Shown piece by piece: positions 24,101-52,678 of a stretch of DNA of 64,000 bases (its first letter is position 1; every line of letters begins with the position of its first letter). The translations under genes and the position numbers were made by a program. Location: positions 40,327 to 104,326 of IMG/VR virus record IMGVR_UViG_3300031257_000001, one strand, 5' to 3'. A model generated the notes under the pieces. That model was given only the letters and a program-made list of their open reading frames with translations, had not been told where the DNA came from and searched no databases. The stretch is from a virus.

Positions 24101-26632
24101 GTGATCAAGCTACGCTTGGACAACCGCTGGGTCTACATCACCGGCGCTCCGCGCTCCGTCATCCGCGAGTTGGAGTCCATCACGAGCTATCGTGTGGCGG
24201 GCTTCATGTTCGCGCCGTCCTTCAAGAGAGGGCACTGGGACGGCAAGGAGCACCTGCTGCGCTTCAGCAGCAAGCGCGGATACCACGCGCCCCGAGGACT
24301 CGTCACCGACATCGCCCGGGCTCTTCGGGCTGAGGGGCATCGGTACACGGTCGAGCATGTCCACGCTCCGCTGCCGGAGCGGCGCAAGCTGGTGTGGGAG
24401 TCCAGCGTGGTGATGCGAGGATACCAGGATGAGGCGATCAACGCCCTGCTGGCACCTCCTGTGCGCGGCAGTGGGGTGTTGAAGATGCCCATCAGGAGCG
24501 GCAAGACCAAGATGGCCGCCCGGCTCATCCGCAGGATCGGCCAGGCCACACTGTTCGTGGTCCCGTCCAAGTCACTCCTGTACCAGACCCGGGAAGCCCT
24601 CGCTGAGTGCTTCCCGTTGGAGACCATCGGCCTCATCGGCGACTCCGAGCACGATGAGCAGTTCATCACAGTCGCCTCCATCCAGACATTGGCGATGTGG
24701 CGCGAGGGCGGCCGCTGGAAGATGATGCGGCCTGCCAAGAAGCAGGAAAGCCGCGTTGCGTGGCTGGAGGAGCACGGCTGGGAGCCGTCGGGCGAGCTGT
24801 GGCGCAAAGGTCGCATCAAGCCCGTGGCGATCGTCAAGGCCATCGAGCGTGAGGCGAGCGACCGCGAGGCAGAGCGGAAGGCCACTGTCAAGGCCAAGTA
24901 CAAGGGTCTGCTCAAGGCGTTCCCTCTGCTCATCCTCGATGAATGCTTTATTGCAGGAACGTTAGTTGACGGGAGACCTATCGAGAGCATTGCTGTCGGT
25001 GACATGGTTGCTGCATTCGACAACAACGGCACCACATCCCAACGACGAGTAACCCGGACATTCAAAACGGTTCCATCCAGCCTTGTTCGCATCCGATTCA
25101 ACGACGGAAGGACCCTGACTTGCACGCCAGGGCATCCCTTCTTCACCGCTTGCGGTTGGGTGAAGGCTTGCGAGCTGAGGCCTGGATCGGATATGGTGTT
25201 AAGCACCAATGCTAAAGTGCACGACCTGCGGACGGGAATTGGACTCGGAGAACGTTCCTGCTCATCGTTTGGAACGATGGAAGAAAACCGGAAGAATCTA
25301 CTGCAAGACAGCTTGCGGCCGTGCATACACCGGGAAGGTGACCCGAAACTCACCCCACCTACGCTCCCAGGAGGTGCGGGAGGCTTCATCGAGGCGAATG
25401 AAGGAGAGCAACCCGATGCGCTCGGAGCATGTGCGTGCCAAAATGGCAGCTTCGCTGCGTGCTCGTGGCCATTCTCCCAATTGGACCAAGGGCGGGAACG
25501 GACGGCCACTACCAATTGCACAAGTGGTCCTTGCAGCTGCTTTGGGATGGGAGACAGAATGCGTTGTGAAGACGGGGAATCCGTCACGTGGAGTGGATCG
25601 AATGGTCGGGATTTCGTCTTGTTACAAGCTGGATGTTGCCAACTCGACGCTGAAGCTCGGAATCGAGCTAGACGGCCCCTCGCACCACACTCCGAAAGCA
25701 CGTGTGTTGGACAAAAAGAAAACCGACTTTCTGAGTGGGATGGGGTGGACGGTGTTGAGGTTCTCCAACCGGGAAGTGACAAACGATTTGGAGGGTTGTG
25801 TCCGGACGGTTTTGTGTACAATCTCGAAGTTGAAGGACTCCACACGTACATAGCCAACGGCTTGGCCGTCCACAACTGTCACCACTACCGGGGGACCGGC
25901 GAGTGGTACAAGGTCCCGCATGAGTTCGACAGCAGGTTCAAGGTCGGCCTGTCGGCCACCGCCTATCTGGACAACAGCGTCGAGCAGGAACGCGGGATCA
26001 TCTGGCTGAAGGCGACGTGCGGACCGATCCGCTGCGACATCCCGATGAGCCGTCTCATCGCGGACGGATTCTTGATGAAGCAGCACGTCAGGATGTTCCG
26101 CGTGACCACCCCCAACCTCAATGGCCGGAAGTGGAGCGCGACGATGCGCCGGCAAGCCATCGTGACCAACCGCCGGCGCAACGCGATAATCGTCATGTGC
26201 GCTGCCAAGTACGCCGCAGAAGGACGCCGCATCGCCATCATCGCCCGGCTCCACGAACACATCGGGATCCTGTGCGAGGCGATGGATGAGGCCGGGCTGG
26301 AGTATCGCACCATCACCGGGCATGACGACCAAGAAGCGCGCGAGGACATCGTTGACGGGTTGGTCAGAGGGGACTACCATGTAATCATTGGAACCGTCAT
26401 CGGCGAGGGCGTGGACATCCCACAAATGGAGGTGGTCATCAATGCGGAAGGCGGCAGGGATACCAAGTCCACTGTGCAAAGGCAACGCAATCTAACCATC
26501 AACAAGGGCAAAAGGCAGGCGGTATTGGTTGACTTTTTGGACGAGACAAACGACCATCTGCGAAAGCACTCCGAGGCCCGGTTGGAGGTGTACCGCAGCG
26601 AGCCAATGTTCCAGATTGACCTGGTGGGCTAG
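24101..26632 (+). CDS. SF2 DExH helicase (UvsW/ResIII-like) containing an intein
   Basis: 'MRGYQ', motif I 'PIRSGKT', motif II 'LILDE/CHH' split by the intein, 'GLSAT', 'IGEGVDIP', 'QRQR'. Confidence 0.92.
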   Translation: MIKLRLDNRWVYITGAPRSVIRELESITSYRVAGFMFAPSFKRGHWDGKEHLLRFSSKRGYHAPRGLVTDIARALRAEGHRYTVEHVHAPLPERRKLVWESSVVMRGYQDEAINALLAPPVRGSGVLKMPIRSGKTKMAARLIRRIGQATLFVVPSKSLLYQTREALAECFPLETIGLIGDSEHDEQFITVASIQTLAMWREGGRWKMMRPAKKQESRVAWLEEHGWEPSGELWRKGRIKPVAIVKAIEREASDREAERKATVKAKYKGLLKAFPLLILDECFIAGTLVDGRPIESIAVGDMVAAFDNNGTTSQRRVTRTFKTVPSSLVRIRFNDGRTLTCTPGHPFFTACGWVKACELRPGSDMVLSTNAKVHDLRTGIGLGERSCSSFGTMEENRKNLLQDSLRPCIHREGDPKLTPPTLPGGAGGFIEANEGEQPDALGACACQNGSFAACSWPFSQLDQGRERTATTNCTSGPCSCFGMGDRMRCEDGESVTWSGSNGRDFVLLQAGCCQLDAEARNRARRPLAPHSESTCVGQKENRLSEWDGVDGVEVLQPGSDKRFGGLCPDGFVYNLEVEGLHTYIANGLAVHNCHHYRGTGEWYKVPHEFDSRFKVGLSATAYLDNSVEQERGIIWLKATCGPIRCDIPMSRLIADGFLMKQHVRMFRVTTPNLNGRKWSATMRRQAIVTNRRRNAIIVMCAAKYAAEGRRIAIIARLHEHIGILCEAMDEAGLEYRTITGHDDQEAREDIVDGLVRGDYHVIIGTVIGEGVDIPQMEVVINAEGGRDTKSTVQRQRNLTINKGKRQAVLVDFLDETNDHLRKHSEARLEVYRSEPMFQIDLVG
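25168..25197 (+). promoter_or_regulatory. candidate sigma70-type promoter inside the intein
   Basis: TTGCGA-18 bp-TATGGT, 11 nt before ATG 25209. The -10 hexamer is identical to that of the promoter at 31463-31491. Confidence 0.4.
25209..25853 (+). CDS. DUF559/Vsr-like endonuclease with Zn-finger and NUMOD-like N-terminus, nested in the +1 frame of the intein
   Basis: 214-aa ORF: CTTC...YCKTAC, 'RMKESNPM', 'YKLDVA...GIELDGPSH...DKKKTDFLSGMGWTVLRFSNREV'. Confidence 0.85.
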   Translation: MLKCTTCGRELDSENVPAHRLERWKKTGRIYCKTACGRAYTGKVTRNSPHLRSQEVREASSRRMKESNPMRSEHVRAKMAASLRARGHSPNWTKGGNGRPLPIAQVVLAAALGWETECVVKTGNPSRGVDRMVGISSCYKLDVANSTLKLGIELDGPSHHTPKARVLDKKKTDFLSGMGWTVLRFSNREVTNDLEGCVRTVLCTISKLKDSTRT

Positions 26633-40029: not shown

Positions 40030-41098
40030 TTATACGCAAATGTTCCCAGAGGGAATCTTTGAAAGCGACAGCATGGAGATCAACATGACAAAGGAGCCGA
40101 AAGTCACACTGGTGACGCACACTCGGGACCCTCTGGAGACGGTGTATGCCGTCTGGAAGGCCAGCAAGGATGAGGAGCCGCTGATGACAACGCAGGCGGT
40201 GAAGCTGACCGTTCCAGATGGCAAGGTCAGAGACCTGTTCCGCCGGGTCATCGCACAACGCATTCCGGTTGGCGAGCACGTGGACTTCGTGTTCATGGTC
40301 GAAAACATCAGCGTCAGCTGGCGTGAGCAGGCTGTGCGCCATCGCATCGGCGTCAAGCCCTCCCCGGAGCGCGTGGGCGCCGACATCGTGATGATGGACA
40401 GGATCCCGGACCTCGCCGAAAGCAGTTGGTGGTCGCAAAGTATGAGATTGATGGACATGGGGAAGTTCGCTCAAAACGGAGCATTCAGGCTTCCGGCGAC
40501 AGTGGAGCGCGATTCCAAGCTCACCCAGATGTTCATCGAGACCATGTTCACCATCCAGCGGACCTACAACGTTCTGGTGGAAGCAGGCATCCCAATGGAG
40601 GATGCGCGTGAGCTCATGCCGCTCGGAGCCCAGCATCGCATCTCGTGGAAGCTCAACATCGGGGCGCTGCAACATATCGTCTCCAAGCGTGGCTGCTTCA
40701 TCCTGCAACTTGGGATCTGGGGGCCTGTGATCCAGGGGGTGATCACCGAGCTGGTCCAGAAGGTTGACCCTGTGTTCTCAGAGTTGGTCACGCCGCCGTG
40801 CCTCGATGGCAACACGTTCAAGGGGTGCGCGTTCCACGAGGAGTGCCGGCGCCGGATCAGCGGCGAGGACGCTCTGCCGCCTTGCCCGCTCCACTTCCGG
40901 CATCATCACATCCCCGAGAAGATGGGGAATGGCGACGACATCGCCCACGCCCACACGCCCGAGGTTCAGGACAAGTACCACTTGCCCATGGCTGAAGAGA
41001 TGCGGGCTCGTGCCGAGGATTACATGCGGTTCTGGTACCGTGACCCGTACACCGGCGAGCGCTTGGGTACATCGAACGTAGCGATGAGGCTGATGTGA
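40019..41098 (+). CDS. divergent ThyX-like flavin-dependent thymidylate synthase homologue
   Basis: 'EHVDFVF...EQAVRHR', an insertion, 'SWWSQSMR', 'EDARELMP'; Cys-rich C-terminus. Start codon uncertain. Confidence 0.78.
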   Translation: MLPDYTQMFPEGIFESDSMEINMTKEPKVTLVTHTRDPLETVYAVWKASKDEEPLMTTQAVKLTVPDGKVRDLFRRVIAQRIPVGEHVDFVFMVENISVSWREQAVRHRIGVKPSPERVGADIVMMDRIPDLAESSWWSQSMRLMDMGKFAQNGAFRLPATVERDSKLTQMFIETMFTIQRTYNVLVEAGIPMEDARELMPLGAQHRISWKLNIGALQHIVSKRGCFILQLGIWGPVIQGVITELVQKVDPVFSELVTPPCLDGNTFKGCAFHEECRRRISGEDALPPCPLHFRHHHIPEKMGNGDDIAHAHTPEVQDKYHLPMAEEMRARAEDYMRFWYRDPYTGERLGTSNVAMRLM

Positions 41099-41637: not shown

Positions 41638-42035
41638 AGGAGCTCAGGAATTGGGCGCGGGGCGAGGACATCGCCGGGCTGCCGGAGCAGTCTGTGCGGA
41701 CTTCGCCATCCCAACGAGAACACCCCGGGCGAGTCAAGATGCTGGAGCGTTTGGAACAGCTGAAGCTCCAAGCGCGGACCGCCGGCGGACAGCAGACGGG
41801 GATGTACAAGATCAGCACGGGCGGCGACGATGCTTTGATCAAGTTCGGGAAGCACGCCGGGAAGGCGTTGTCAGTGATCATGGATGAGGATCCGACCTAT
41901 CTGGCGTGGATGCTTCGTGATGACGATGACGGCCAGCCTCGGTTCGATTCCGTCTTGCTTGATGTGGTGAAGTATGTACAGGAATCCCACTGGAAGAAAG
42001 CGCGTGAAGAGCGCGCAAAGGGGCGCCGGAGATGA
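41625..42035 (+). CDS. hypothetical protein with FGKHxG motif (DUF3820/ExoX C-terminal-like)
   Basis: 'IKFGKHAGKALSVIMDEDPTYLAWM'. Confidence 0.65.
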   Translation: MPTLKELRNWARGEDIAGLPEQSVRTSPSQREHPGRVKMLERLEQLKLQARTAGGQQTGMYKISTGGDDALIKFGKHAGKALSVIMDEDPTYLAWMLRDDDDGQPRFDSVLLDVVKYVQESHWKKAREERAKGRRR

Positions 42036-45000
42036 GCAAGCCTGACGACATCGTTCACCTCCACGTCCACAGCGACATGTCCAATCTGGACGGCTGCGGC
42101 AAGATTCCGGACTATGTGGCCGCGGCCAAAGCCAGAGGTCACCGGGGCGTCGCCTTCACCGACCACGGGACGATGCGCGGGTACATGACCCAGCACGAGC
42201 AGTGCAAGGAGCACGACGTCAAGCCCGTCTATGGCCTTGAGTTCTATGTGTCTCCTGACATGCGGAGGCGTGGGCTCACCGAGGATGAACGGGCGGACAT
42301 CACCCGGGACCTCCCCAAGTCAGAACACAAAGCTGCCATCAAGAAACATGAGGAGCACGCAGGGATCCGCGACCGTTGGCACCTGACCGTTTGGGCCCTC
42401 GATCAGGTTGGTCTGCAGAATTTGTACAGGCTCTCATCCGCGGCGTGGATTGAGGGGTTCTACTACAAGCCACGCATCGACCTCGATGAGCTGATCAAGT
42501 ACGGCGTAGGGTTGGCGGTCGGCTCCGGCTGCTTGGCGTCGCCCATCAACGACTGCTGGGTGTTGGGTAGGCAGAAGCAAGCGCTGGGGTACGCCGATCG
42601 GTTGGCGGATGCGTTCGGCGACAGGCTGTACCTGGAAGTCATGCCACACGCCATTCGGGATCAGCGCCTTGCCAATGGGCTGATGCTCAAGCTCCGCAAG
42701 CGGTACGGCAGCCGGGGTGTTCGCTTGCTCGCAACTCAAGACGCCCACTATGTGGAGCAGGCAGACGCTTGTCACCACGAGGTTCTTCTGTGTATCGGGA
42801 CCAACTCCATCCTGAGTGACCCAGAACGCTTCAAGTTTGATGGCAACGAATTCCATTTCAAGACGCGCAAGGAGATGATTAGGAGCTTCCGGCGGAACCA
42901 TGAGTTCATGCCAGACAGCGCCATCCGAGAAGCGTTGAACACCACGCTGGAGCTTGCGGAGCGCGTGAGTGCCAAGGTGGAGGTGGACTACCACAAGGCG
43001 TTGCTTCCTGATTCAGGCATCCCGGCAAAGTGTGATGGCAACGCATTTGCCTATCTGCGCGATTTGTGTCTGGACGGATGGAAGTGGCGTGAGATTCCCA
43101 AGCGCGCGGCCGCCTATGCCGCCGTCCACGGAGTCAGCAAGCCAGAGGCGCTGGCCATCTACCGCGACAGAATGAAGTACGAGATGGGCGCGCTGGTCCG
43201 CCAGAGGTTTGTGCCCTACTTTTTGATGGTTCACGACATCTACCGCTTCGCACGCGAGGCACACATCATGACCGGGCCCGGGCGCGGCTCGGTTGCCGGA
43301 TCGCTTGTTGCCTACTGCTTGGGGCTTACAGCTGTGGATCCCATTGAGTTCGGCTTGATCTTCGAGCGCTTCATCAACCCGGACCGCATCGACATGCCGG
43401 ATGTGGACATGGACTTCGAGGACAGGCGCCGGTCTGAAATCATGGACTATTTGCGCGCCAAGTACGGCGAGGACAAGGTGTGCCAGATCGCCACCATTGG
43501 GAAGCTGTCGGGGAAGCAGTGCATCCGCGACGTGAGCCGGGTCCTTCAGGTCCCACTCAACGAGGTGAACCAGGTCACAGCGTCGATCATCGAGCGTAGT
43601 TCAGGTGATGAGCGTGCCAGTCAGACCATTGAGGACAGCTTCCAGGAGTTTGCAGTGTGCCGTGCCTTCAACAAGCGGCATCCAGAAGTCCTAGAACACG
43701 CCCGCAAGCTGGAGGGGATGGCCAAGAACCTCGGGATACACGCGGCAGGCGTCGTGGCATCCCCGGTCCCGTTGACGGACCTTCTGCCGTTGGAGATCCG
43801 GAAGCACGACGGCCGCGACCTTGTGGTGAGCGCCGTGGATATGTACGGCGTGGCCTCGACTGGACTGGTAAAGCTGGATGTTCTCGGGCTCCGAACGCTC
43901 ACAGTGATCAAGGAGACGCTGGAGGCCATCGACCGGCGTCACGGTCGGCACATCGACATGGAATCCAGGGACATCGACCTGAACGATCCCAAGGTGCTAC
44001 AGGGATTCACCGACCACAACTTTGGAGGTGTGTTCCAGTACGACACGACCAGCGCGGCCGCGGTCTGTCGTGGCGTGAAGTTCGCCCACTTTGAGGATGT
44101 GGCCGCACTCACCGCACTGAATCGCCCGGGCACCTCCCGGTCGGGCCTCGCCACTGAGTACGTGAGGCGAAAGAAGAAACCAAAAGAGGCTGAAAAGGAT
44201 CATTTCCATCCGTTGGTCAGCAAGATCACCAAGGACACCCTTGGGATCATCGTGTACCAAGAGCACGTCATCCGCATCTTCATCGAGGTGGCAGGCTTCG
44301 CTCCCGGCACGGCTGACAGCCTGCGCAAAACCATTGCCAAGAAGATCGGCGATGAGGCCATGGGCAAGGAGCGCGAAAACTTCATCAGGGGCGCTTGGGA
44401 GCACTCCCGGGTGGACCGAGCCACGGCGGCCAAGATAATGGACGCGATCACTTTCTTCGGCTGTGTGCCATTCTGGACGCAAATCGCGATTCCGCTTGAC
44501 GGAGAACGCTCAATTGGTGTAACGGCTAGAACCTTGCCGATCGATCTGGTTCGACCGGGCGACGAAGTCTGGAGTGTGGACGAGCATTGGCGTTTGGTTC
44601 GGAACCGCGTCAAAAACGTGGTGGCGACAGGGCGAAAGCCGTTGTTCCGAATCGTCGCAAAGATACATGACGGCAACAGGAGGGTCACAGTCGAGGCTAC
44701 CGCTGGCCACTATTGGTTGCTCGTTTCGGGGAAATATGCAAAGACGGAACAGCTCAAGTCAGGCGACGTCATCGCGTATCGGAACCGAACGGCGTTGCGT
44801 GTCGATGTAGCGATCGTCCAATTGATCGAGCCGGTGGAGTTTGTCGGTGACGCAACCACTTATGATCTTGAAGTGGAGAACGAGCCACACAACTATGTCG
44901 CCGACGGATTCGTTTGTCACAACAGCTACGGATTCAACAAAACGGTCGGCCGGTCTGCGATGGTGTGGAAGGCCGGAGCGAATGCTAGCGATCCCAGGGG

Positions 45001-48000
45001 TCAAGTTTCAATAGGTGAAATTGCCGATAGGTGGAACGAGCGCAAGGATGGCACATGGTCTCCAATGGCTCGAAAATTGCGCTATGGCAGATTCAAAATC
45101 ATCCAGATGGATGAAGATGGGCGCTGTCGCCCAGCGCGCCTCATTGGAATCCATGATCACGGTGTCCAGCGCGTGTATCGGCTCAAGACAAAAAGTGGCA
45201 TTGAGACGCCGCCAATCAGCCGTAACCACCGTTTGATGACGTCAGAAGGGTACAAGTCCATAGCCACTGGACTCGGCCCGGGTGATGCGCTCTTGTTCAT
45301 GGGCGAGAACAAGGGCCATGATTATTGCTCCTGGTTTGCTGGCGGTGATAGGCAGTTTGCGCAGTCCGGTAGGGTGAATGACGCATACCGCGCGACGGTT
45401 GCTGCTGTTTGGAAGCGTGACGGTGGCAAGTGCTCCGAGTGTGGCGCGAAGTGCGAGCATGGGCGTGGCGGATCCGAGGTGGCCCACATCTGGTCGCCGG
45501 CCGAATGCGATTACAACAAGGCTCTTTTCCACTCTGAGGCAAATCTGCGTCTGTTGTGTAATTCTTGCCACAAGCGTCTTGACTATGAGAAAGGTGAGCG
45601 CCAAAGGCGATGGAGCAAGGGCAGACCGACATTTGCTGATGAGGTGGTTGAGGTCATCGATTCCGGCGAGGAGCATTGCTATGATCTTGAGGTGGACGCT
45701 CCGGGCCACAACTTCGTCACCGGGCCGGACGGAGAAACGCCGCCGGTCGTTTCCCACAACTCACACGCTACCGCATATGGCATGATTGCGTTCTGGTGCG
45801 TTCACGGGCAAACGCGATTGCTGGATTGGAGCAAGAAAGAGTACACCACGGTGGCACGTGCTTATCGGGAAGGCACAAGCATGATCGCTTGTTACGACGA
45901 ACGGACTGGGGGGACGATCGGCGGCAAAGTTAAGTGTGTGATTCGGACTGGCAAGAAGAAGGTATGGGAGGTGCGTCTGCGCTCCTACAAGACGCTTCGG
46001 TGTTCCTCTGATCACTTGATCTTGACGGACGAAGGATACAAGAAAGCGTCTTGCCTTCGCGTCGGCGATCTGGTCGCTTCGGAAAAGAGGCTTTCGCCTT
46101 CAAAGAGAGAATCTGTCAAGAAGAAGCTGCGACGCGCCGCGAAGGAACAATGGGCGGGGCTGTCTCCGGAGCAAAGAGCGTCGATGGTCTCCAAAGCGCA
46201 CGAGGCGTTGACGCCGGAATTTCGACGAGAGCACGTTTGGCGCGGCACAGCGGAAGACGGCCATAAGGTCTATTCATGGGGAGAGAAGTTGGTCGGTGAT
46301 TGGCTGTCGAGCCGTGGGCTGGAACACGAGACGCAACCTAGCGTCGGACGCGGCAAGCGAGCTGACTTCATTTGCCAAGGCGTGTACGTCGAATACGACG
46401 GGATGCGACGCGAAGAATCGTATTGGGAGGACAAATTCGGGGATCTGCCGTATGTCGTCGTTAAGCCGGGGGACGACTTGGACGATGTACTTTCGTTCTT
46501 GGTCGAGACGGGCAAGATCGTCGTCGGCGAAGAAGTCGCGTTCGAGCCGGTCGTCTTCGCAAGAAAAACGGAGCGCGTCGCGTTGATGTACGACGTCGTC
46601 ATGGAAGGCGAGCCGCACAACTTCCTGGCCAACAACATCGTCGTCCACAACTGCATGTGGCTCAAAACTTACTATCCTTTGGAGTTTTATTGGGCGTTGC
46701 TCAAGAACGAGCCTGACAGGCTTCGCATCCAGCAGTTCGCCAAGGACGCGAAGCAGCACGGCATCGCCCTCTTGCCGCCACACGTCAACGTGTCCGATGA
46801 CGTGTTTGCCATTGACGACGCCAGGACGGCCATCCGCGGTAGCCTCGTGGACATCAAGGGCGTGGGGAAGGCAGCTGCCAAGGCAGTCATCGCCAACAAG
46901 CCATACCGGAGTCTGCTGGACTTGGTGGACAGGGTTGAGCGCCGGGCCGTTCACCGAGGCGTCGTGGTCGCCCTCGCCTCCGCCGGCGCGCTGGAAGGGA
47001 TGCTACCCAACACCAGGCACTTCGTGGAGAACATCGACGCATGGTGGAAGGTGCTCACAGCCAAGGCCAAGCGTGCCAAGAAGTTGCGTGAACTTCTGGC
47101 TGCAGCGAGGGCGGAGCCGGACTGGCCGCCAGAGGACCGCGACCTGCTGGCGTCCCGGGTGAACCCGCTGGCGTTCGGCGCACACCCTGTAGAAGCCCAC
47201 CTCAAGGCGATTGGGCACCGTATCATGGTGCCTGCTGTCACGATGGCTGACGAGGACTTCTTCAAGCGCCACAACAGCAAGGGTGTGTACGTGATGGGGA
47301 TGGTCGTTGAGGTCAAGTACAACCAGATCGGCGACTTCAACACCGGAGAACTGCCCAGCGAGACCGAGAAGCGCCGGATGTTCTGGGGCAGCCGATACGC
47401 CAACATCAACATTGAGGAAAGGACCGGGACGCAGAACCGATTCAAGGTTGACTTCCACATCTTTGATGACCACCGGGCCATCGTGGACAAGGGTGTCGGG
47501 ACTCCGCTTGTGGCGTTCGCAACCCCAATGGCCTTCACAGGGACGTTCCGTGCCCACTTCTTGGTGGACATGGAGGTGCTCCGAGCCAAGCTCACATCCG
47601 GCGATGAGATGGATGTCTGGGAGAACATCGTTACCGGACGCCACCCGGCCCTCGTGTACCGCTGGGCATCGGAATCCGTCCGTGAGGAGCGCTCGACCAA
47701 CGCCAAGTTTGAAAAGTACGGTGGCCACTTCTGTGGTGTGGTCACACACATCCAGCCGAAGTATGACCGCAAGGGCGGGCTGATGGCCTACCTGGGATTG
47801 CTAGCCGGCGATGGCCGGTATGAGCGCGTGCTGGTGTTCGCATCGGTGTGGCAGCACATCAAGCGGAAGCTCAAACGCGGGATGCTAGTCAGGATGGAGT
47901 TGGAGCGTAAGCCGGATCGTGGTGGATGGACGTGCTTCTACAACGGCGGGCATGTCAAGTTCTACAACAGAAAGATTCCAGCCGCCACGCCGGCGGATGA

Positions 48001-48004
48001 GTAG
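42032..48004 (+). CDS. dnaE: DNA polymerase III alpha subunit with three inteins
   Basis: PHP 'HLHVHSDMSNLDG...FTDHG', 'GPGRGSVAGS', 'FERFINPDR...PDVDMDF', 'HAAGV', 'KLDVLGL', spliced 'SYGFNKSHATAY', 'WLKTYYP'. Confidence 0.96.
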   Translation: MSKPDDIVHLHVHSDMSNLDGCGKIPDYVAAAKARGHRGVAFTDHGTMRGYMTQHEQCKEHDVKPVYGLEFYVSPDMRRRGLTEDERADITRDLPKSEHKAAIKKHEEHAGIRDRWHLTVWALDQVGLQNLYRLSSAAWIEGFYYKPRIDLDELIKYGVGLAVGSGCLASPINDCWVLGRQKQALGYADRLADAFGDRLYLEVMPHAIRDQRLANGLMLKLRKRYGSRGVRLLATQDAHYVEQADACHHEVLLCIGTNSILSDPERFKFDGNEFHFKTRKEMIRSFRRNHEFMPDSAIREALNTTLELAERVSAKVEVDYHKALLPDSGIPAKCDGNAFAYLRDLCLDGWKWREIPKRAAAYAAVHGVSKPEALAIYRDRMKYEMGALVRQRFVPYFLMVHDIYRFAREAHIMTGPGRGSVAGSLVAYCLGLTAVDPIEFGLIFERFINPDRIDMPDVDMDFEDRRRSEIMDYLRAKYGEDKVCQIATIGKLSGKQCIRDVSRVLQVPLNEVNQVTASIIERSSGDERASQTIEDSFQEFAVCRAFNKRHPEVLEHARKLEGMAKNLGIHAAGVVASPVPLTDLLPLEIRKHDGRDLVVSAVDMYGVASTGLVKLDVLGLRTLTVIKETLEAIDRRHGRHIDMESRDIDLNDPKVLQGFTDHNFGGVFQYDTTSAAAVCRGVKFAHFEDVAALTALNRPGTSRSGLATEYVRRKKKPKEAEKDHFHPLVSKITKDTLGIIVYQEHVIRIFIEVAGFAPGTADSLRKTIAKKIGDEAMGKERENFIRGAWEHSRVDRATAAKIMDAITFFGCVPFWTQIAIPLDGERSIGVTARTLPIDLVRPGDEVWSVDEHWRLVRNRVKNVVATGRKPLFRIVAKIHDGNRRVTVEATAGHYWLLVSGKYAKTEQLKSGDVIAYRNRTALRVDVAIVQLIEPVEFVGDATTYDLEVENEPHNYVADGFVCHNSYGFNKTVGRSAMVWKAGANASDPRGQVSIGEIADRWNERKDGTWSPMARKLRYGRFKIIQMDEDGRCRPARLIGIHDHGVQRVYRLKTKSGIETPPISRNHRLMTSEGYKSIATGLGPGDALLFMGENKGHDYCSWFAGGDRQFAQSGRVNDAYRATVAAVWKRDGGKCSECGAKCEHGRGGSEVAHIWSPAECDYNKALFHSEANLRLLCNSCHKRLDYEKGERQRRWSKGRPTFADEVVEVIDSGEEHCYDLEVDAPGHNFVTGPDGETPPVVSHNSHATAYGMIAFWCVHGQTRLLDWSKKEYTTVARAYREGTSMIACYDERTGGTIGGKVKCVIRTGKKKVWEVRLRSYKTLRCSSDHLILTDEGYKKASCLRVGDLVASEKRLSPSKRESVKKKLRRAAKEQWAGLSPEQRASMVSKAHEALTPEFRREHVWRGTAEDGHKVYSWGEKLVGDWLSSRGLEHETQPSVGRGKRADFICQGVYVEYDGMRREESYWEDKFGDLPYVVVKPGDDLDDVLSFLVETGKIVVGEEVAFEPVVFARKTERVALMYDVVMEGEPHNFLANNIVVHNCMWLKTYYPLEFYWALLKNEPDRLRIQQFAKDAKQHGIALLPPHVNVSDDVFAIDDARTAIRGSLVDIKGVGKAAAKAVIANKPYRSLLDLVDRVERRAVHRGVVVALASAGALEGMLPNTRHFVENIDAWWKVLTAKAKRAKKLRELLAAARAEPDWPPEDRDLLASRVNPLAFGAHPVEAHLKAIGHRIMVPAVTMADEDFFKRHNSKGVYVMGMVVEVKYNQIGDFNTGELPSETEKRRMFWGSRYANINIEERTGTQNRFKVDFHIFDDHRAIVDKGVGTPLVAFATPMAFTGTFRAHFLVDMEVLRAKLTSGDEMDVWENIVTGRHPALVYRWASESVREERSTNAKFEKYGGHFCGVVTHIQPKYDRKGGLMAYLGLLAGDGRYERVLVFASVWQHIKRKLKRGMLVRMELERKPDRGGWTCFYNGGHVKFYNRKIPAATPADE
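44462..44923 (+). mobile_element. DnaE intein 1 (mini-intein, 154 aa)
   Basis: CVPFWTQI...ATAGHY...TYDLEVENEPHNYVADGFVCHN|S; no endonuclease domain. Confidence 0.92.
44942..45760 (+). mobile_element. DnaE intein 2 (273 aa, HNH endonuclease, Thr at position 1)
   Basis: FNK|TVGRS...SRNHRL...RDGGKCSECG...AHI...NLRLLCNSCH...CYDLEV...VVSHN|SH. Confidence 0.9.
45797..46651 (+). mobile_element. DnaE intein 3 (285 aa, PD-(D/E)XK/DUF559-like endonuclease)
   Basis: FW|CVHGQT...CSSDHLILT...SWGEKLV...RADF...VEYDG...MYDV...IVVHN|C. Confidence 0.9.
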
Positions 48005-50211: not shown

Positions 50212-50771
50212 GCCGTGCCGCGCGACATAGCTCCACGACAGCGGAGCATCTGACCCCGTTGTACGTCGTGGACGCTGCTAGGGAGGCGTTGGGTGGTGTC
50301 ATCGATGTGGACCCAGCGACCACCTTGAGGGCGAACCGGGACATTGGAGCCCGGTTCACCTTCACGCGCGACGAAAGCGGCATGAAGAACCGTTGGCCCG
50401 GCCACGTGTTCTTGAACCCGCCTGGAGGGACAGTCCAGACACGGCTGACCAAATCCAGTTCGGTCCTGTGGTGGGCGAAGCTGATGTTGGAGTGGACCAG
50501 AGGGCGGACGACCGCCGGCGTGTTCATCTGCTTCAGCGTGGAGATACTCCAAGCGGCACAGAAGGTTCGGCAGGTTCCGCAGCCGTTGGACTTCCCGTTG
50601 TGTGTCCCGGATCACCGCATCCCGTTCGACACGCTCGACAGTCGCGGCCGGCGCGTGTCACAGAAGGATCCGACGCACGCCAACGTCATCATCTACCTGC
50701 CATCAAGAGATGATCCAGGGGCCCTCCGGTTCCGCCGCGCATTCAAGGACATTGGGAGAGTGAGAACGTGA
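50208..50771 (+). CDS. phage DNA N6-adenine methyltransferase-like protein
   Basis: 'HLTP...IDVDPAT...W.GHVFLNPPG...RIPF'. The catalytic motif is NPPG rather than NPPY. Confidence 0.7.
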   Translation: MSRAARHSSTTAEHLTPLYVVDAAREALGGVIDVDPATTLRANRDIGARFTFTRDESGMKNRWPGHVFLNPPGGTVQTRLTKSSSVLWWAKLMLEWTRGRTTAGVFICFSVEILQAAQKVRQVPQPLDFPLCVPDHRIPFDTLDSRGRRVSQKDPTHANVIIYLPSRDDPGALRFRRAFKDIGRVRT

Positions 50772-52678
50772 CGACCAGGCCCAAAAAGGCGATGAGGAAA
50801 ACAACCAAGAAGCCGAAGCCGAAGCCAAAGCCCGAGCCGCCCGGGCGCAGCCTGGAAGTTGAGGTGCTCGAAGGGATCCGCTCTGAGATTGGAGATGACG
50901 GGGCGCAATTGCTCGGGAGCGATGAGTTGAAGACCAAGATCAGGGGCGTCATCTCGACCCGCTGTATGACGCTGGACGCTGCCATCGGCCGCGGAGGGAT
51001 CCCGTTGTCACGCCTGACCATCCTCCACGGCGGCGAGGGGTGCATTGCATCAGGTGCGTTCATTCCAACAAATAGGGCCGGTAAAGGTGAATCATTCAAG
51101 ATTGAACATTTGGTTAAAATGTTCAACGGCGGAGTGTCGGGCGGCAAACGTTGGGATCGATCCATACCAACGATGGTTAGGGTCATGCAACCTGACGGGA
51201 CGATCAGGTTGGCGCGCTTGAAGCGCGCTTGGAGTTCCGGGAAGCGGGTTGTGTTTGAAGTGGCTACTTCTGCTGGCAGAAAACTAACAGCCACAGCCAA
51301 TCATCCGTTTTGGTCATACGTTGCCAATGATTGGGTGCGTTTGGATGCGTTGTCAATTGGCGAATGTGTGGCAGTCGAGGATGGACGACCAGCGAAAAGG
51401 AAAACACTATCAGTGAGACTGCGGGACAAATATGTCAAATTGAAGAACCACCCGTATGCATGTGCAAGGAACAGCGATTCCATTGTTGCTTACCACCGTT
51501 TGGTGTACGAGGCACATGTCAATGGGGTGGACGTCAACAAATTCATAGCGCAAATTCGTAGTGGCAATCTGTCTGGGTGTGTGTTTTTTGATCCATCTGT
51601 GTTTGTTGTTCACCACAAGAATGGCGACCATTCTGACAACACAGTTGGCAATCTGGAATTGCTAACTCATTTTGCACACAGGATAAGGCACATTCCAGAT
51701 TGGGCAAAAAACATCGAAGTCCATGCCAAGCCGGAAAGAATTGTGGCTGTTCGTGAGTGTGGTGCGATGGAAACATATGATCTTGAAATCGATCTGGACG
51801 AACCGAATGGGCAACCGAATTTTGTTGCTAATGGGTTCGTGGTACACAACTCGGGCAAGACCACAGTGGCGCTCCACCTCGTTGCTGAAGTACAGGCACA
51901 GGGCGGCGTGGCCGTGTACATCGACAAGGAGTACAAGCTGGATCCGGACTATGCCACTGCCATCGGCGTGGACATCAATCGGCTGATCATCAGCCAGCCG
52001 CGTTCCCTGGAGCAGGTCCTTGGGGCCATCAAGAAGGCCATTGCCATCGCGGCAGCAGCCCGCCGGCGAACGGGGAAGCGTGTCCCCATCCTCGTCATCC
52101 TGGACTCCATCAACGCGGCCACGGCAAAGGCACGCTTGGAAGGTGACGAGGGCGCCAGCCACATCGCGCCGGAAGCGCGACTTTGGTCAGGGCACCTCCC
52201 GGCCATCATTGAAGAGTGCTCCAAAGAGGATGTGGCATTGGTCCTTGTCAGCCAGGTTCGCTCCAAGATCGGCGTGATGTTCGGGAGCAACGAGGACATG
52301 GCCGGCGGGAATGCTCCGCGATTCTACGCCAGCCTGATCGTCTACATCAAGCGGGTTGGAACCCACAAGCGCGACGGCGAGAAGAAAGCCAACATCATCG
52401 AGGCCGAGTGCAAGAAGAATCAGATCGGGCCGCCCTTCCGCAAGGGAAAGTTCCTGTTGGAATATGGCAAGGGAATCGACTGGGAGCACTCGCTGATCCT
52501 CCAGGCGGAGGCGACTGGCGACGTCCAAACCAAGGGCTCGTGGTTGAACTTTGATGGCGAGCGGATTGGCCAAGGACGCGACGCTGCCGCAGACAATCTG
52601 CGCAAGAACAAGAGCTGGGCAGAAGACATCGAACGGGCCGTCAGGGTCTCATTGGGATGGGATGAAGAAGCAGCATGA
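50768..52678 (+). CDS. recA: RecA recombinase with an intein in the P-loop
   Basis: 'LDAAIGRGGIP', spliced GGEG/SGKTT, 'YIDKEYKLD', 'ILDS', 'SQVRSKIGVMFG', 'GGNA.RFYAS', 'KKNQIGPPF'. Confidence 0.95.
   Translation: MTTRPKKAMRKTTKKPKPKPKPEPPGRSLEVEVLEGIRSEIGDDGAQLLGSDELKTKIRGVISTRCMTLDAAIGRGGIPLSRLTILHGGEGCIASGAFIPTNRAGKGESFKIEHLVKMFNGGVSGGKRWDRSIPTMVRVMQPDGTIRLARLKRAWSSGKRVVFEVATSAGRKLTATANHPFWSYVANDWVRLDALSIGECVAVEDGRPAKRKTLSVRLRDKYVKLKNHPYACARNSDSIVAYHRLVYEAHVNGVDVNKFIAQIRSGNLSGCVFFDPSVFVVHHKNGDHSDNTVGNLELLTHFAHRIRHIPDWAKNIEVHAKPERIVAVRECGAMETYDLEIDLDEPNGQPNFVANGFVVHNSGKTTVALHLVAEVQAQGGVAVYIDKEYKLDPDYATAIGVDINRLIISQPRSLEQVLGAIKKAIAIAAAARRRTGKRVPILVILDSINAATAKARLEGDEGASHIAPEARLWSGHLPAIIEECSKEDVALVLVSQVRSKIGVMFGSNEDMAGGNAPRFYASLIVYIKRVGTHKRDGEKKANIIEAECKKNQIGPPFRKGKFLLEYGKGIDWEHSLILQAEATGDVQTKGSWLNFDGERIGQGRDAAADNLRKNKSWAEDIERAVRVSLGWDEEAA
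51041..51850 (+). mobile_element. RecA intein (270 aa) with HNH endonuclease
   Basis: CIASGA...ATANHPF...YHRLV...VHHKNGDHSDN..GNLEL...TYDLEI...FVVHN|S; lower GC than the flanks. Confidence 0.93.

Follow-up and report, generated by a model that had tools for sequence, protein, structure and literature searches.

A predicted homing endonuclease gene nested in the +1 frame of a phage helicase intein and its recurrence in other phages

Inteins at conserved sites of phage proteins can carry homing endonucleases, and here we describe an intein whose predicted endonuclease is encoded in a different frame. The window that we analysed comprises 64,000 nucleotides (nt), positions 40,327 to 104,326 of IMGVR_UViG_3300031257_000001, a 104-kb IMG/VR virus record that is rated complete and belongs to a phage from salt-marsh metagenomes. 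Based on sequence comparisons and structure models, we consider it highly likely that a mobile intein at the Walker B site (motif II) of a superfamily 2 (SF2) helicase of this phage carries its homing endonuclease as a separate gene that is nested in the +1 frame. The helicase is encoded on the + strand by an open reading frame (ORF) of 843 amino acids (aa) that is open from end to end (24101-26632) and contains UvsW_N, ResIII and Helicase_C domains. Its translation reads ...LLILDE / CFIAGTLVDG...GLAVHN / CHHYRG..., thus the intein occupies exactly 24944-25876 and lies within motif II (DExH), where it is inserted between E and C of DECHH. As a preliminary description of this DNA had stated, the +1 frame holds a complete ORF of 214 aa with its own ATG and TAG (25209-25853). 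A TAA is found in the +1 frame two codons 5' of this ATG.

The +1 ORF matches the Pfam family DUF559 with an expect value (E) of 2.2e-12 (47 bits, cutoff 20.6). Three regions can be distinguished in the protein: a putative zinc ribbon (CxxC...CxxxC), a helical part with an invariant RMxxxNPM and a Vsr-like/DUF559 domain. Among 17 aligned nucleases, 26 positions are invariant and all 26 are kept in the window ORF; they include the four cysteines, RMxxxNPM, GGN, Y139, D142, E153, D155, H159, D168, K171, W180, R184, F185 and N187. The profile of the family matches the DUF559 structure 3hrl (E 8e-14) and the catalytic domain of I-Bth0305I (3r3p, E 0.0035), which carries Asn at the family's D155 in the profile alignment. 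D142, E153, D155, H159 and D168 are candidates for the catalytic residues of the composite EDxHD motif. The AlphaFold2 model of the nuclease has a mean predicted local distance difference test score (pLDDT) of 85.8. Residues 100-210 of the model superpose on 3hrl with a Z score of 11.8 (root-mean-square deviation 1.4 over 86 residues), on 3r3p with 10.6 and on Vsr (1cw0) with 8.9, and Foldseek alone finds 3r3p and 3hrl with E about 0.01. These comparisons confirm the earlier proposal that the +1 ORF is a predicted nuclease of the DUF559/Vsr type, and they place it with I-Bth0305I. The cysteine motif had also been noted before, and C4, C7, C32 and C36 are invariant in the 17 sequences. Its likeness to zinc fingers is weak in profile comparisons (YacG, L24e and MYM, E 0.02-0.06), and a Pfam search with residues 1-100 yielded no family. 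For the 'NUMOD-like' basic segment that had been proposed in the same protein, we found no database support.

In the helicase frame, the intein matches the Pfam families Intein_splicing (E 6e-11) and PT-HINT. The splicing residues C1, T61, H64, H310 and N311 are invariant in an alignment of 10 sequences. When the intein is modelled, only residues 1-90 and 262-311 fold (pLDDT 83-96), and these HINT halves match the splicing domains of mini-inteins (Foldseek, E 5.5e-6, TM score 0.72-0.77 on the target). The signature residues, the HINT fold and the stop-free insertion in frame at a conserved functional site are those of a class 1 intein, and we infer that it is spliceable, as the preliminary description had done, and that splicing would follow the class 1 route. 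A Pfam search of the in-frame intein found no nuclease family, and residues 91-261 are modelled with a pLDDT of 31-40 and without secondary structure, which fits the earlier remark that the central in-frame residues show no nuclease motif. The nuclease gene begins at intein residue 89, at the end of the N-terminal HINT half.

The same arrangement occurs in other phages. We searched 50,697 phage records with the +1 protein (tblastn) and found 41 records that match at 36-40% identity; among the 30 matches listed, all 30 fall under coding sequences of helicase type. In Pseudomonas phage MR14 and in the Vibrio phages CP-T1 and 1.088.O, the nuclease lies +1 to the annotated helicase, inside an intein of the form DE/C...HN/CHH, and the nucleases of these three isolates share only 27-48% identity. 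A profile scan of IMG/VR detected 32 loci, in 22 of which the nuclease is at +1 within a long open host frame. Three further +1 cases are located on contigs of metagenome-assembled genomes (MAGs) labelled Enemella, Tangfeifania and Thermococci. We checked 29 loci, i.e. the window, the three isolates, the 22 IMG/VR loci and the three MAG contigs: in 29/29, the nuclease is at +1 and the host frame is open, and no intein-borne copy in any other register was found among them. The composite is inserted at several Walker B positions (DE/C, DEAQ/C and DExHK/C) in UvsW-like, SNF2-like and clamp-loader-like proteins. For instance, at L017:2064-4172 a nested-nuclease intein occupies the Walker B site ILLDE/C...HN/CHS of what appears to be a clamp-loader-like AAA+ protein, a host reading that rests on a GGSGTGKTS P-loop and the Walker B context. 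On the contig that was binned as a Thermococci archaeon MAG, the +1-nested nuclease is found in an SNF2-like gene that has Ser at the +1 position (VHN/SHFIKEN; L040:1074-3578). If this binning is right, the nested-nuclease family reaches archaeal viruses.

Two compensating insertions or deletions could in principle have put a normal in-frame endonuclease domain out of frame, and the window does come from a metagenome-assembled virus record. Furthermore, one database protein of 338 aa on a short contig of 1.3 kb (P0017) joins the N-extein, the N-terminal intein half and the nuclease in a single frame, which reflects either a frame variant of the family or a sequencing error. We give such an assembly or sequencing artefact practically no credence. 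Contigs from three other salt-marsh samples, which are independent assemblies, have no inserted or deleted letters over the region, so the compensating indels that the preliminary description would have sought in reads are not seen in these contigs; a single independent contig covers 24410-25885 with 0 differences. The same +1 register in all 29 loci, including the three sequenced isolates with their diverged nucleases, and the nuclease's own ATG directly after a stop of the +1 frame argue against an artefact as well. Moreover, an artefact would not create the strong avoidance of stops in the host frame that we observed. We shuffled synonymous codons such that the nuclease protein was held constant and counted stops in the host frame. 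For the window, the shuffles average 7.4 host-frame stops and none of 2000 is free of stops, whereas no stop is observed; the third frame holds the expected 10 stops. Over the loci, host-frame stops are absent in 20/20, including loci at 32-35% G+C, where 5-21 are expected from the shuffles (each P <= 0.0025), while the expected 10-37 stops are present in the third frame. The antisense strand is also open across the intein in the window, for 562 codons (24187-25875, - strand). We rejected this frame as a gene: it is open in no relative and only in the GC-rich window, and we thus read it as an effect of chance or G+C content.

To compare selection on the two frames, we used three loci that could be aligned gap-free (L018, L020 and L022). 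For L018 versus L020 and for L020 versus L022 alike, the nuclease frame has a ratio of non-synonymous to synonymous substitution rates (dN/dS) of 0.17-0.18 and the host frame one of 0.75-1.0, and 25/40 and 27/43 of the respective differences lie at nuclease codon position 3. Following both frames in relatives, as had been suggested, revealed two open frames throughout and, in this clade, purifying selection in the nuclease frame. When the same bases are read in both frames in nine distinct loci, pairs of loci share a mean identity of 0.41 in the nuclease core but 0.20 in the host-frame linker. Disorder-promoting residues are slightly more frequent in the linker than in synonymous shuffles (0.626 vs 0.599, p 4e-5), and its hydrophobic content does not differ from them. 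The bias is probably a by-product of would-be stops becoming Lys, Glu, Gln, Arg or Gly codons, and we thus did not count it as separate evidence. The openness of the host frame in every locus might also mean that the functional domain here is the intein's central part as read in the helicase frame, and that the +1 ORF is there by coincidence. We regard this as extremely improbable: the linker contains no Pfam family, is modelled as disordered, is barely alike between loci and has a dN/dS of about 1, and it is instead the +1 ORF that matches a known nuclease family by sequence and fold. Selection thus appears to maintain the nuclease frame as a protein and the helicase frame only as a stop-free sequence, save for the last ~42 codons.

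In these last codons, both readings are conserved, with a mean pairwise identity of 0.40 for the nuclease and 0.42 for the host reading. Here, G-W-T-V-L-R-F-S-N of the nuclease (+1 frame) overlies the intein strand ...V-D-G-V-E-V-L-Q (frame 0). The preliminary description had proposed an overlap of the nuclease 3' end with the C-terminal splicing region and a constraint in both frames. Both points hold, but the overlap is longer than the ~35 codons given there (~42, 25727-25853). The TAG that ends the nuclease in the window arises from the intein block F codons ATA GCC (Ile-Ala). This stop is TAG in 17/18 loci and always arises from host codons xTA Gxx in intein block F or G, e.g. Ile-Ala, Val-Glu or Leu-Val. 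Upstream of the overlap, the helicase-frame linker is, judging from the identities and models, a read-through of the nuclease gene and represents the new, unconserved reading. The endonuclease had been called overprinted on the intein; this has to be reversed because the nuclease family is old and has free-standing members (L016, L038), so that the newer reading is the helicase-frame linker over the nuclease gene.

With regard to translation, we found a Shine-Dalgarno core 4-13 nt 5' of the nuclease start in 9/17 distinct loci compared to 9.7% of other ATGs of the same genes (p 9e-6). In several loci, the core is made by the intein codons Asp-Glu-Val (GAC GAG GTT). This enrichment favours independent internal initiation. 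Alternatively, programmed +1 ribosomal frameshifting could yield a fusion of N-extein, N-terminal intein half and nuclease instead of a free protein. Such a mechanism would suit the shared strand and the fixed +1 register, and P0017 has this fused form. We consider frameshifting very improbable, as the +1-frame stop two codons (window) or one codon (CP-T1) 5' of the nuclease ATG leaves almost no room for a shift site. Furthermore, the ATG is conserved with the CxxC motif just after it, the Shine-Dalgarno core is enriched upstream of the start, and a conserved slippery motif was not noticed.

The distribution of the intein points to mobility. L018 and L022 have inteins that differ by ~2% (dS 0.02-0.04), whereas their exteins have diverged much further (dS 0.65-1.1, N-extein dN 0.37). 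An intein is present in only 2/108 database relatives of the window helicase, and the nearest relative (529 aa, C-extein 80% identical) has the uninterrupted site LLILDECHHYRGTGEWYK. In a marsh sample from 2025, intein pieces differ at 1/549 bases and two extein pieces at 11/268. Close relatives of the C-extein were not found in IMG/VR by peptide patterns; the protein database was searched instead. None of the four sample runs contains a contig joined across the intein, an observation on contigs only that has no bearing on the absence of an intein-less allele. A sporadic, near-identical intein between diverged exteins suggests recent lateral spread by active homing. Only 17 nuclease homologues were found among 5.8 billion called proteins, mostly on contigs of ~1 kb, and this scarcity fits nested same-strand ORFs being skipped by gene callers.

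Some observations speak against a nuclease gene that is expressed and mobile in the window phage. Its nuclease ATG has no Shine-Dalgarno core and only GGTG about 10 nt upstream, as the codons in question read Asp-Met-Val in the window, so that the core is absent there; Shine-Dalgarno sequences are present at many other genes of this phage. A candidate internal promoter, TTGCGA-N18-TATGGT (25168-25197), matches 8/12 consensus positions where the threshold is 9; it is absent from the list of the consensus scan and is not supported. The dN/dS estimates come from one clade (L018, L020 and L022) and not from the window phage, and L018 versus L022 has too few differences to discriminate the frames. 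The low divergence of the intein could partly be explained by the dual-coding constraint and not by recent transfer alone. The element might also be a decaying relic, effectively a mini-intein with a long spacer whose +1 product is not made or is inactive in the window phage, and the lack of a Shine-Dalgarno core that many relatives have would agree with this. We think that this is unlikely, given an intact ORF that keeps all 26 invariant positions and has a confident fold, the purifying selection in the nuclease frame of relatives, and a recent gain of the intein, to which its sporadic occurrence and the empty site of the nearest relative point. We infer that the +1 product is expressed in the window phage.

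For a separate nested gene, we propose the following course of events. As the anatomy suggests, ribosomes in the helicase frame would make a precursor in which the HINT halves (1-90 and 262-311) fold round a disordered loop of ~170 residues, and class 1 splicing (Cys1, TxxH, His-Asn and +1 Cys) would restore the DECHH motif. Ribosomes that start at the internal ATG (25209) would make the 214-aa enzyme with its zinc ribbon, helical region and Vsr-like nuclease of the I-Bth0305I (EDxHD) type. Judging from the distribution, the enzyme would then cut intein-less helicase alleles of co-infecting phages near the coding sequence of DE/CHH, and repair would copy the intein together with the nuclease gene into the empty site. 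The most probable origin of the composite is the entry of a free-standing Vsr-like endonuclease gene into a mini-intein, at the point where endonucleases are usually inserted and with the host frame left intact. The coordinates of all parts are listed in Table 1.

Table 1. Parts of the intein-containing helicase gene and of the nested nuclease gene (positions in the window; pLDDT, predicted local distance difference test)
Feature	Position	Strand	Evidence
Helicase N-extein, ends in the motif II residues ...LLILDE	24101..24943	+	ResIII E 3.5e-14; UvsW_N E 2.7e-6; start codon uncertain
Class 1 intein, 311 aa, helicase frame	24944..25876	+	Cys1, block B T61..H64, terminal His-Asn, +1 Cys
N-terminal HINT half, intein residues 1-90	24944..25213	+	pLDDT 83-96; mini-intein matches, e.g. 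2in9 E 5.5e-6
Helicase-frame linker, intein residues 91-261, stop-free, unconserved, predicted disordered	25214..25726	+	pLDDT 31-40; identity; stop avoidance
C-terminal HINT half, intein residues 262-311, blocks F and G (...GFVYNLEVEGLHTYIANGLAVHN)	25727..25876	+	model; alignment; mini-intein matches
Predicted nested homing endonuclease gene, +1 frame, 214 aa, ATG...TAG	25209..25853	+	DUF559 match, 17-sequence alignment, AlphaFold2 model
Putative zinc ribbon, nuclease residues 4-36, cysteines C4, C7, C32, C36	25218..25316	+	invariant in 17 sequences
Vsr-like nuclease domain, nuclease residues 100-210	25506..25838	+	invariant residues; 3hrl E 8e-14, 3r3p E 0.0035; Z scores
Dual-coding segment, ~42 nuclease codons over the folded C-terminal splicing domain, 127 nt	25727..25853	+	identity in both frames; models
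Helicase C-extein, begins CHHYRGTGEWYK: completes motif II, then Helicase_C	25877..26632	+	

The nuclease family also occurs in other architectures. Free-standing nucleases are found on a Pontibacter contig (L038) and in L016, directly 5' of an intein-less helicase. In the latter (L016:2959-5090), the free-standing nuclease has 212 aa and overlaps the start of the helicase, and a single additional C disrupts the helicase at the intein insertion site, precisely between the codons for DE and GHH (GATGAA-C-GGACACCAC). An assembly error, a scar left by repair or a genuinely split gene could explain this C. In L027-L030, the nuclease is fused in frame inside the intein of a Mu F-like head protein; for instance, L027:1477-3666 contains an intein ...HPN/CFING...VVHN/CRC in this protein with a Vsr-like/DUF559 nuclease of the same family in frame. 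A split ('fractured') version was not present among the loci found. In the nuclease tree, the backbone is unresolved. Support for separating the intein-borne nucleases from the in-frame (L027) and 390-aa (L031) forms is only 82/85, and the free-standing L016 falls among the intein-borne nucleases without support. As the tree is poorly resolved, the architectures cannot be ordered and we claim no direction of evolution.

Further inteins are present in the window phage. Its DNA polymerase III alpha gene (42032-48004, 1990 aa) bears an intein, and its RecA gene (50768-52678, 636 aa) bears an intein with an in-frame HNH domain. Inteins have thus invaded no fewer than three genes for replication or recombination in this one genome. 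The phage also encodes a tape-measure protein and SbcC.

Comparing the element to known systems, we find precedents for the general design. Later papers credit Gorbalenya 1998 (Nucleic Acids Res 26:1741) with intein endonuclease genes that are out of frame or antisense. Inteins of actinophages are reported to contain antisense LAGLIDADG, antisense Vsr-like and frame-3 endonuclease VII-like genes, in a preprint that knew Vsr-like endonucleases only from split inteins and antisense genes (bioRxiv 10.1101/2025.01.02.630785). For a cyanobacterial dnaX intein, a +2 LAGLIDADG gene is supported by a disordered in-frame region, by low omega values of the other frame and by a Shine-Dalgarno sequence (bioRxiv 10.64898/2026.09.14.751524). 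With these reports, 1998 and the two preprints of 2025-2026, the earlier statement that no intein family of this design is described does not hold, although its interpretation as a separate +1 endonuclease gene within a spliceable-looking intein does. Our element resembles these non-canonical inteins in its layout: a complete endonuclease ORF separates the two splicing halves at the usual insertion point but is read in a different frame, and over this stretch the host frame lacks stops and is predicted to encode a disordered segment. The likeness extends to selection, purifying on the endonuclease but relaxed on the host reading in L018, L020 and L022, and to the proposed origin from a free-standing endonuclease gene that invaded a mini-intein. 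It differs in the type of gene: theirs are LAGLIDADG (+2 or antisense), antisense Vsr-like and frame-3 endonuclease VII-like, whereas here a same-strand +1 gene of the Vsr-like, probably EDxHD type is found in inteins at Walker B sites of helicases or AAA+ proteins in many unrelated phages. In addition, a segment of ~42 codons here encodes conserved folded protein in both frames. Our full-text literature searches turned up neither a description of contiguous helicase inteins with a Vsr-like gene at +1 on the same strand nor one of the nested-nuclease family in CP-T1, MR14 or the Nahant phages. On the present comparison, the out-of-frame design as such appears to be already described, while its same-strand +1 Vsr-like version in contiguous helicase inteins does not seem to have been reported.

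Fractured genes are a second point of comparison. In these, Vsr-like endonuclease genes lie between split-intein halves, with a 3' overlap of 6-69 bp (Dassa et al. 2009, PMC2677866). Shared features are the same nuclease class between N- and C-terminal intein halves, mostly in phage replication genes including helicases, and a nuclease 3' end that overlaps the coding sequence of the C-terminal intein part. In the fractured genes, the host gene is broken into two ORFs, splicing is in trans and the overlap is shorter than the 127 nt found here. In the window and the 28 other intein-borne loci, the host gene is not split in two ORFs. The host frame is continuous in all 29 loci, thus splicing would be in cis, unlike in fractured genes. 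Tentatively, and with slightly less than an even chance of being right, we suggest that the nested family is the contiguous counterpart of these fractured genes: a mini-intein was invaded without gene breakage, one ancient event fixed the +1 register, and the composite spread later. If so, the register may have been locked by the nuclease strand G-W-x-V-x-R-F lying over the intein strand [VL]-[DE]-[SG]-[VI]-x-[IV], and the linker of ~170 residues may be a newly arisen disordered peptide that is shaped only by stop avoidance. Gene callers would have missed the composite as it then spread over Walker B sites of UvsW-like, SNF2-like and clamp-loader-like proteins, in phages that infect bacteria and possibly archaea.

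The nested family provides a large, testable set of same-strand dual-coding mobile elements, some of them in cultivable phages (CP-T1, the Nahant Vibrio phages and MR14). It bears on how inteins acquire endonucleases, in particular on the model 'splicing first, invasion by a free-standing endonuclease gene' and its link to fractured genes, and it is an example of two proteins that share about 130 nt under joint constraint. It also marks a blind spot of annotation, as nested same-strand ORFs are not called by gene callers. For enzyme work, Vsr-like homing endonucleases that would recognise the coding sequence of helicase motif II are potential new specificities.

Lastly, we compared the nuclease itself and its setting. 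I-Bth0305I is the prototype of the EDxHD homing endonuclease family (Taylor et al. 2011, PMC3239194; PDB 3r3p). Like the predicted window nuclease, it has a C-terminal Vsr-like domain after an N-terminal putative DNA-binding region, is phage-borne and is tied to an intervening sequence. I-Bth0305I is encoded in a group I intron of recA and contains two NUMOD2 motifs, whereas the window protein has a putative four-cysteine zinc ribbon and the RMxxxNPM helical region and is nested in an intein. By sequence, it is nearer to DUF559 (3hrl) than to I-Bth0305I. ShiLan likewise has a phage gene with a stop-free insertion that contains an endonuclease gene in another frame. A splicing domain is absent from ShiLan, so the insert remains in the host protein, whereas here clear HINT halves flank the nuclease gene.

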